This document shows positions 43,676 through 44,344 of a stretch of 64,000 bases of DNA, piece after piece; position 1 is the stretch's first letter; each line of letters starts with the position of its first letter. Location of the stretch: contig OZ024762.1 in assembly GCA_964016885.1 (NCBI GenBank), positions 25,296,001 to 25,360,000 on the forward strand, given 5' to 3'. This DNA comes from Eledone cirrhosa. Lineage: Eukaryota. The translations under genes were made by a program, and so were the position numbers. Below the pieces are notes generated by a model. It did not search any database, was not told the origin of the DNA, and saw only the letters and a program-made list of their open reading frames with translations.

Positions 43676-43681
<6 letters not shown>

Positions 43682-44344
43682 GAAATACGTCCTTTCACGC
43701 ACAAGGCGTCAAGGTACGCATGTATTGTCCAACCAAGTGCCAGTGTGGTTCAATGGCGGGTTAATAAATTAACGAGCCAGAACAAATATAAACAAGGTTT
43801 AGTAAATAATGAAAAAGTTTCAAAATAAATTTTAAAAAATTGACTTTACCTACTATAGTTACCTTTACCGATCGTTAATTTATTAACCCGCCATTGAACC
43901 ACACTGGCACTTGGTTGGACAATACATGCGTACCTTGACGCCTTGTGCGTGAAAGGACGTATTTCATATTACTACTACCTCCACATACGTTGAGAACAAA
44001 CCGGGTCATTCCGACTGCTGCTGATAACAGCGGTGGCTAGTTCGACCTACCTCCTTTTGCCTCTATCTTTACTACGGCCCTTGATAAACCTGTTCTACAT
44101 CATCCACTCTCATCCCAGGAACAGTCTTTGATAGCGCTAGTTTGTGATTTAAATTCAGGAATTTTATATTCTTTGAATGAAAAGAACCTTCTGACGAGAA
44201 TCTCTCTTTGCAACGAGGGCCGTATGGCCTACGTTTTATTTTTGGGATTCGAAACCGATCGGTAAAGGTAACTATAGTAGGTAAAGTCAATTTTTTAAAA
44301 TTTATTTTGAAACTTTTTCATTATTTACTAAACCTTGTTTATAT
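43676..44344 (+). mobile_element. Retrozyme-like element, ~483 nt circularly permuted monomer with inverted arm
   Basis: The inverted arm 43676-43874 joins the 3' end (44256-44344) to the 5' start (43873-43971) via TTGTTCTGGCT. Confidence 0.85.
44186..44269 (+). ncRNA. Type I hammerhead ribozyme
   Basis: ACCTT-CTGACGA-GAATCTC...GGGATTC-GAAACC-GATC-GGTA-AAGGT. Confidence 0.9.

Follow-up and report, generated by a model that had tools for sequence, protein, structure and literature searches.

In this study, we identified a tandem non-coding repeat of 483 nt in Eledone cirrhosa and analysed how it inserts, starting from one copy in the window, that is, the whole stretch of 64,000 nt under analysis (assembly GCA_964016885.1, contig OZ024762.1, positions 25,296,001 to 25,360,000 of the forward strand). 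The explanation that accounts best for the whole of the data, and that we consider reasonably likely, is a two-armed insertion of a non-LTR retrozyme, in which the enzyme of a Hydra-clade Penelope-like element (PLE) primed on both strands of a (TA)n target, from two fixed starts, on one likely circular RNA.

Structure of the insertion in the window

The window copy is a 671-nt two-armed insertion of the repeat. Two perfect inverted pairs define it, 43676–43775 with 43872–43971 (100 nt) and 43786–43874 with 44256–44344 (89 nt), and their limits were confirmed by script. Unit numbering starts at window position 43873 (unit position 1). Read on the minus strand, the minus arm runs through unit positions 384–472, then through 11 nt (43785–43775) that are missing from the plus arm, and then through unit positions 1–99. 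The features of the insertion and its surroundings are as follows.

43630–43677, no strand: left (TA)n target tract, adjoining end B
43676–43874, minus strand: minus arm, 199 nt, unit positions 384–483 and then 1–99, with a 3′ end of type B
43775–43785, minus strand: 11 nt missing from the plus arm (unit positions 473–483), the beginning of the tail of about 108 nt between ends A and B
43872–43874, no strand: head-to-head join of the arms, with a 3-nt overlap
43873–44344, plus strand: plus arm, 472 nt, unit positions 1–472, with a 3′ end of type A; same sequence as units of tandem arrays, e.g., locus L003
43892–43902, plus strand: CATTGAACCAC motif in the tail after end A, common to the retrozyme clan (gapped clan pattern with 9,965 matches; control, 1)
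43979–43994, plus strand: CTCC-N6-GTTGAG motif directly after end B, common to Hydra-like PLEs, a predicted protein-binding signal (kept in 173 of 176 units)
44186–44269, plus strand: predicted type I hammerhead with a long stem II and a palindromic 3-bp stem III; predicted cleavage after 44264 (unit position 392)
44340–44363, no strand: right (TA)n target tract, adjoining end A
43200–43632, plus strand: separate element, the 3′ pLTR of a PLE from the Hydra-like candidate mobiliser family; the retrozyme lies in its (TA)n tract, and all 40 copies scored were 100% identical

The initial annotation had described an inverted arm that starts in hammerhead stem III, passes the plus-arm 3′ end, reads 11 nt and enters the plus-arm start, and it had placed the hammerhead at 44186–44269 with a GUA ending at 44264. 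The inverted pairs are exact, and both descriptions agree with our analysis. The arm was not copied from adjoining DNA, as had been argued, since the 11 nt are missing from the partner arm; the same design is found at dozens of loci. Nor is the sequence across the 11 nt a product of chance, because a 32-nt string spanning it has 619 exact matches genome-wide, compared with 0 for the reversed control.

The passage from 472 through the 11 nt to 1 had, however, been taken for an end-to-start junction of the RNA, and this reading has to be given up. It is ordinary internal sequence of the unit, occurring also within genomic arrays; position 472 is a fixed 3′ end, and position 1 is a chance 5′ truncation. 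The supposed junction consists of the A end and the first 11 nt of the tail of about 108 nt, which only B arms carry. The arm alone cannot discriminate between a circle and a multimer as the template. According to the hammerhead model, the ligation junction would lie between unit positions 392 and 393 (44264/44265), not at 472/1. With only one complete hammerhead, the window copy could not release a monomer, which makes it a dead end. Elsewhere in the window (44860–47500, 6200–8100 and 12200–13100), very long trinucleotide-type microsatellites and a GC-rich minisatellite give rise to spurious long ORFs.

The 483-nt family in the genome

When the 3.0-Gb genome was searched with the plus arm, 1611 candidate places were obtained; the 40 that were scored contained 189 matches, many of them spaced 483 nt apart. 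The natural tandem unit is 483 nt long, ends in the 11 nt, and is present on many contigs; the stem III/I string has 1231 exact matches in the genome. Arms contain up to ten units, the longest being 4911 nt. The predicted circular or multimeric template was borne out by this 483-nt period and by the multi-unit arms, and the collected genomic copies contain the expected monomer of about 483 nt in tandem arrays. The repeat encodes no protein and has no LTR structure; it consists of tandem units of a few hundred bp, each with a type I hammerhead motif, and its copies are dispersed in a genome in which PLE families are abundant. All of these are properties of non-LTR retrozymes, and the 483-nt element is almost certainly a real, young insertion of this class.

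A look-alike of the Pol III B box near unit position 168 was rejected because, as read by eye, it is not kept in an older subfamily. A 513-nt contig (483 + 30) from a sample labelled as another organism shows 10 differences from L022:1442–1954, which suggests an equal unit length there.

Two fixed ends and their pairing

We analysed 109 loci, selected in three ways: 55 matched the junction pattern on contig 1, 24 matched the hammerhead pattern, and 30 came from the similarity search. They comprise 57 two-armed insertions joined head to head, 43 single-armed insertions, and 9 complex loci. The 3′ ends fall at two fixed sites about 108 nt apart, A at unit position 472 and B at 97–105; in the first 71 loci, position 472 was used 56 times, 97 40 times, 99 11 times, 102 six times, and 105 twice. 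Most A and B ends in the 109 loci (161/167) adjoin (TA)n. Insertion into such a target hides any TSD.

The two-armed insertions combine one end of each type: 51 are A+B, one is A+A, none is B+B, and five have one unclassified end. A+B is thus found in 51 of 52 classifiable insertions (p = 2e-14 against 50:50); the sample, to which loci were admitted on a junction, hammerhead, or full-length match, is biased towards long arms and against short A+A insertions but not against B+B insertions. The longer arm may be on either end, the A-ended arm being longer in 18 of 51. At the arm joins, 1–16 nt overlap in 32 insertions, 8 are blunt, and 17 contain extra bases; both arms exceed one unit in 10 of the 57. 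An inverted 5′-truncated copy (57/109 loci) and an optional tail between two fixed 3′ ends are PLE-type features, and mobilisation of the PLE type is very probable for the 483-nt retrozyme. The sole A+A insertion (L092:3893–4387) is flanked by two copies of another coding element, which are 76% identical and inverted relative to each other.

One haplotype per insertion and the nature of the template

The divergence was 0.35% within arms, 0.51% between arms, and 3.3% between insertions (68/71 loci); the 9 complex loci were left out of the variant counts. At 74 informative sites, 3485 insertion-by-site cells were uniform and 44 were mixed, about half of the latter at a T/A-run boundary, whereas 2095 uniform cells were expected from pooled units. 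The two arms of one insertion agreed in 1635 of 1657 comparisons (1151 expected). Alleles private to an insertion were present in all of its copies in 15 cases (7 spanning both arms), in a subset in two cases (one event, in L040), and in a single copy in 115 cases, although some such alleles of older subfamilies may be lineage alleles that were undersampled. A bottleneck of one monomer combined with precise re-reading is best explained by a circle, and we consider a circular RNA template quite likely.

In a phylogenetic tree, insertions were monophyletic in only 13 of 37 cases, a measure that is uninformative because young insertions have identical haplotypes. A-to-I editing of the template was considered and rejected, as template-level A>G changes (17) were not enriched over T>C changes (25; p = 0.76). 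A345G and A407G (window 44217 and 44279) each recur three times in different haplotypes, with no family-wide excess of A>G.

If the template were instead an uncleaved linear multimeric transcript of the parent array, primed by a PLE enzyme, no circle would be needed. Many-unit arrays exist as possible sources, same-haplotype arms would also result if the A and B sites lay on different units of one transcript, and Frangieh et al. found that hammerhead cleavage was not needed and that unprocessed RNA was the dominant substrate (PMC11167929). However, a new mutation hits one unit of an array, and mosaic progeny would be expected often, whereas mixed cells amount to only 44 of 3529, and private alleles occur throughout an insertion in 15 cases but in a subset of copies in a single event. 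Copying with 5′ truncation also cannot lengthen arrays, and yet arms reach ten units. We therefore regard a linear multimer as unlikely.

A cleaved linear monomer could likewise impose the monomer bottleneck, and without ligation, if the reverse transcriptase (RT) re-read it by repeated end-to-end jumps at 392/393. Arm 5′ ends at 386–400 number 10 of 167, compared with about 5 if uniform, but a small excess at this location is expected from short A-ended arms. Template jumps of R2-type RTs often leave added or lost bases, whereas 268 of 271 junctions in the 483-nt family are free of indels. Jumps between molecules would, moreover, mix haplotypes, and mixing is rare. Such jumping appears improbable to us.

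The discussion of Li et al. (10.64898/2026.07.22.740005) puts forward growth at the DNA level, in which short two-armed copies come first and arrays expand later by unequal crossover or slippage, like minisatellites. Variants confined to a subset of units do occur in a few arrays (L040, L089, and L090), and those shared in L040 and L089 fit local duplication. This scheme is nevertheless very improbable, given the insertions in which both arms exceed one unit, the seven private alleles shared across the inversion, and the young arrays with fixed ends and random 5′ truncations; crossover also requires more than one unit beforehand. A circular template remains our preferred reading.

Predicted hammerhead

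The hammerhead is formed by stem I (44186–44190 with 44265–44269), the core CTGACGA (44191–44197), stem II (44198–44250) followed by GAAA, and a stem III of 3 bp with a palindromic GATC loop; the GUA is at 44262–44264. Folded alone, the 53-nt stem II domain has an energy of −18.9 kcal/mol. The constrained type I fold (−23.8 kcal/mol) lies 2.1 kcal/mol above a competing minimum of −25.9 kcal/mol (z about −2.3). The circular 483-nt unit has a minimum free energy of −112 kcal/mol (z −3.2, 60 shuffles), and the active hammerhead fold is absent from that minimum. Stems I, II, and III show paired (compensatory) base changes across three related families, and the core is kept. Since a search of Rfam gave no hammerhead match at the gathering score or at E ≤ 10, the ribozyme assignment is based on motif, fold, and covariation in the clan. 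Rfam matches to miRNA precursors below the gathering score were discarded, as they merely reflect the long inverted repeat. Of 271 units, 268 have no indel at the predicted cleavage site, and 138 of 167 arms continue beyond it by more than 10 nt, a proportion favoured by the sampling. From these models, we infer that the 483-nt unit has hammerhead activity.

Related retrozyme families

A profile search identified two relatives: a sister family with a unit of 481–488 nt, whose stem III is as in the 483-nt unit, and a 558-nt family, represented in the window by a tandem retrozyme at 10152–11452 (plus strand; 2.3 units, B-site end, type I hammerhead). Local alignment with the 483-nt unit scored 47 for the sister family (Markov nulls, 21.5) and 38 for the 558-nt family (nulls, 23.3 ± 3.8), and 0 of 200 nulls reached the score in either case. 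The claim that the two retrozyme families of the window are unrelated is contradicted by the latter value. The hammerhead topology and end motifs of the 558-nt family also match those of the 483-nt family.

The tails are about 115 nt in the sister family and about 118 nt in the 558-nt family, and both families belong to a clan with about 10,000 matches to the gapped tail motif. By eye, all nine two-armed sister loci were A+B (16 loci examined), and the 558-nt group included eight A+B insertions and one B+B insertion (19 loci examined). Copies of the sister family are present at L066:2724–3521, L101:4859–5842, and L186–L210. A further dispersed family (L165–L185) ends in (CA)n/(TA)n and shares a 29-nt tail motif (25/29) with unit positions 3–31; no ORF was adjacent to it in 21 loci.

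Relationship to Penelope-like elements

An inverted 5′-truncated copy and an optional tail are standard features of PLEs (PMC8557442, PMC3846280), but a reading of the segment as no more than the pLTR of some longer coding PLE, or as a fold-back artefact of assembly, is largely refuted and has a negligible probability, because in 20 loci, each covered by about 8 kb, the unit was linked to no ORF of at least 150 aa, the longest ATG ORF in a natural 483-nt dimer is 44 aa, (TA)n lies within 40 nt of the 5′ end in 34 of 43 single-armed copies without a common upstream flank, and the 11-nt difference between the arms recurs with the same design at dozens of loci. An ORF with RT and GIY-YIG domains between pLTRs, which characterises autonomous PLEs, was not found for the 483-nt unit. 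The absence of a joined ORF at these loci and the (TA)n near the 5′ ends identify the element as a free non-coding repeat, in agreement with its original assignment as a retrozyme.

A motif, CTCC-N4-13-GTYGAG, is located directly after end B in all three retrozyme families (173/176 of the 483-nt units). The same motif is present after end B in four Hydra-like PLE families with RWK/RWR motifs, in a comparison for which B-side sequence of PLEs came from Hydra-like families only. Its control rate is 28 in 453,802 bases, or about 0.001 per end, for a motif picked after inspection. The best-sampled of the Hydra-like families also has DKT and CxCX5C, which are marks of the Hydra clade according to Craig et al. 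(PMC8557442). It has two ends 115–118 nt apart, observed in (TA)n 15 and 13 times, and its many intact frames of 785 aa are 96–100% identical; the tails of the Hydra-like families are about 90–118 nt. None of the pLTRs of four PLE families aligned with the unit above Markov nulls, including PLE b, the one Hydra-like pLTR tested (score 20 against a null of 20.2). The link to Hydra therefore consists of one short motif chosen post hoc, the tail length, and the target. On these grounds, we consider it moderately likely that the partner of the 483-nt retrozyme is a Hydra-clade PLE, and the sequences suggest the Hydra-like family with intact ORFs as the likely mobiliser. The position of the window retrozyme in the (TA)n tract after a 3′ pLTR of this Hydra-like family shows a shared target, not linkage.

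The A/B pairing also occurs in autonomous PLEs of this genome, with 10 pairs in one family, four in another, and no like-with-like pair among those classifiable by eye. In the window, pieces of Hydra-like PLEs are present at 42520–43632 (plus), 54417–57261 (minus), and 4703–5320 (plus), the first of which belongs to a very young family, represented in the genome by many intact ORFs of 785 aa. Another PLE family (205–3187 and 18416–19263) has an RT/GIY-YIG ORF fragment, a hammerhead in the pLTR, and a 60-nt tail, and its two-armed copies pair A with B. A decayed PLE at 57686–60600 (plus) gives a GIY-YIG match (E 4e-4), and its pLTR contains a variant hammerhead-like core.

Proposed mechanism

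We propose an insertion pathway for the 483-nt retrozyme. Arrays would be transcribed into multimers, which would cleave themselves at unit position 392/393 and be ligated into circles. A PLE protein, probably dimeric, would bind the tail region near both start sites and nick both strands of (TA)n. Each nick would then prime cDNA synthesis at one start site, one at A and the other at B, helped by a TA/AT match of a few bases. The length copied by each RT on its way round the template would vary, and microhomology would join the two cDNA ends head to head; a single arm would represent a case in which only one cDNA survives.

A bolder version of this pathway is speculative, and we hold it only tentatively. 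A dimer of the Hydra-clade Penelope protein might hold one ribozyme-made circle at two sites about 108 nt apart, with two RTs running round it simultaneously from each strand of the nicked (TA)n. Double rolling-circle reverse transcription could then be recorded in every two-armed insertion, and the roughly ten thousand retrozyme units of the clan might parasitise Hydra PLEs through a short shared motif, not through descent from a pLTR.

Comparison with known systems

Non-LTR retrozymes are a known class, and the value of the present family is unusually clean genomic evidence on their mechanism. Cervera and de la Peña defined the class, showed circles, and proposed PLE-driven tandem cDNA (PMC7229834). 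Li et al. linked retrozymes to PLE pLTRs in Xenopus, with Hydra only in coral, and reported that eight of nine tested retrozyme dimers were without cleavage (10.64898/2026.07.22.740005). In vitro, Frangieh et al. found that two RT start sites bound the PLE tail and that both strands were cleaved and extended (PMC11167929). Inverted copies, the optional tail, and the Hydra clade of PLEs have also been described (PMC8557442, PMC3846280). In the parts of this literature covered, three questions are stated as open: the identity of the enzyme that moves animal retrozymes, whether their actual template is circular, and the origin of inverted and tailed PLE insertions. The 483-nt family is a very young, high-copy natural experiment: its starts are defined, its two-armed insertions follow a one-A-one-B rule, each insertion has one haplotype, and the genome also encodes an intact candidate enzyme, so that all three questions can be tested with one RNA and one protein. 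In the retrozyme and PLE literature searched, neither strict one-A-one-B pairing nor uniform haplotypes in both arms nor a Hydra partner of retrozymes is stated, although supplements and subscription papers may hold such statements.

The 483-nt family resembles animal non-LTR retrozymes in its tandem non-coding units, one type I hammerhead per unit, low GC content, range from monomers to multimers, and co-occurring PLEs (PMC7229834, 10.64898/2026.07.22.740005). Those elements are without LTR, PBS, or PPT, and rolling-circle reverse transcription has been proposed for them in the same two studies. The unit is longer than the 150–450 bp range of PMC7229834 and within the 51–972 bp range of 10.64898/2026.07.22.740005. 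Circles have been shown for known non-LTR retrozymes, whereas the 483-nt family is known here from genomic DNA. Two-armed insertions, two fixed ends, strict (TA)n targeting, and the Hydra link distinguish it from animal retrozymes as described in the portions of these sources covered.

Poseidon PAc, an EN+ PLE, has similar two internal starts that bound an optional tail, extension on both strands, an AT-rich target, and an inverted 5′-truncated copy (PMC11167929). Unlike in PAc, the 483-nt unit has no ORF, its tail is about 108 nt instead of 30–40 nt, both arms can be multimeric, and the ends coincide with TA/AT matches. Each arm of the 483-nt family uses one site, whereas PAc showed no strand difference in vitro. 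The (TA)n target and the hammerhead are shared with Hydra-clade PLEs, in which the hammerhead lies inside the terminal repeat (PMC8557442). The retrozyme differs from them in being non-coding and in having no overall similarity to the pLTR tested. MRC1 and other non-autonomous Chlamys elements are likewise derivatives of PLEs with multicopy head-to-tail insertions (PMC8557442), but their 3′ end is similar to that of the autonomous partner, and canonical hammerheads are missing from most of that clade.

Plant LTR retrozymes, with a type III hammerhead in two LTRs and a 4-bp TSD, are not matched by the type I hammerhead and tandem units of the 483-nt family. In twin priming of L1, a head-to-head inversion arises from two primers and is joined through microhomology; the internal site used by the second primer varies, and there is no overlap between the arms. 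In the 483-nt insertions, in contrast, both start points are fixed and the same sequence is repeated in the two arms.
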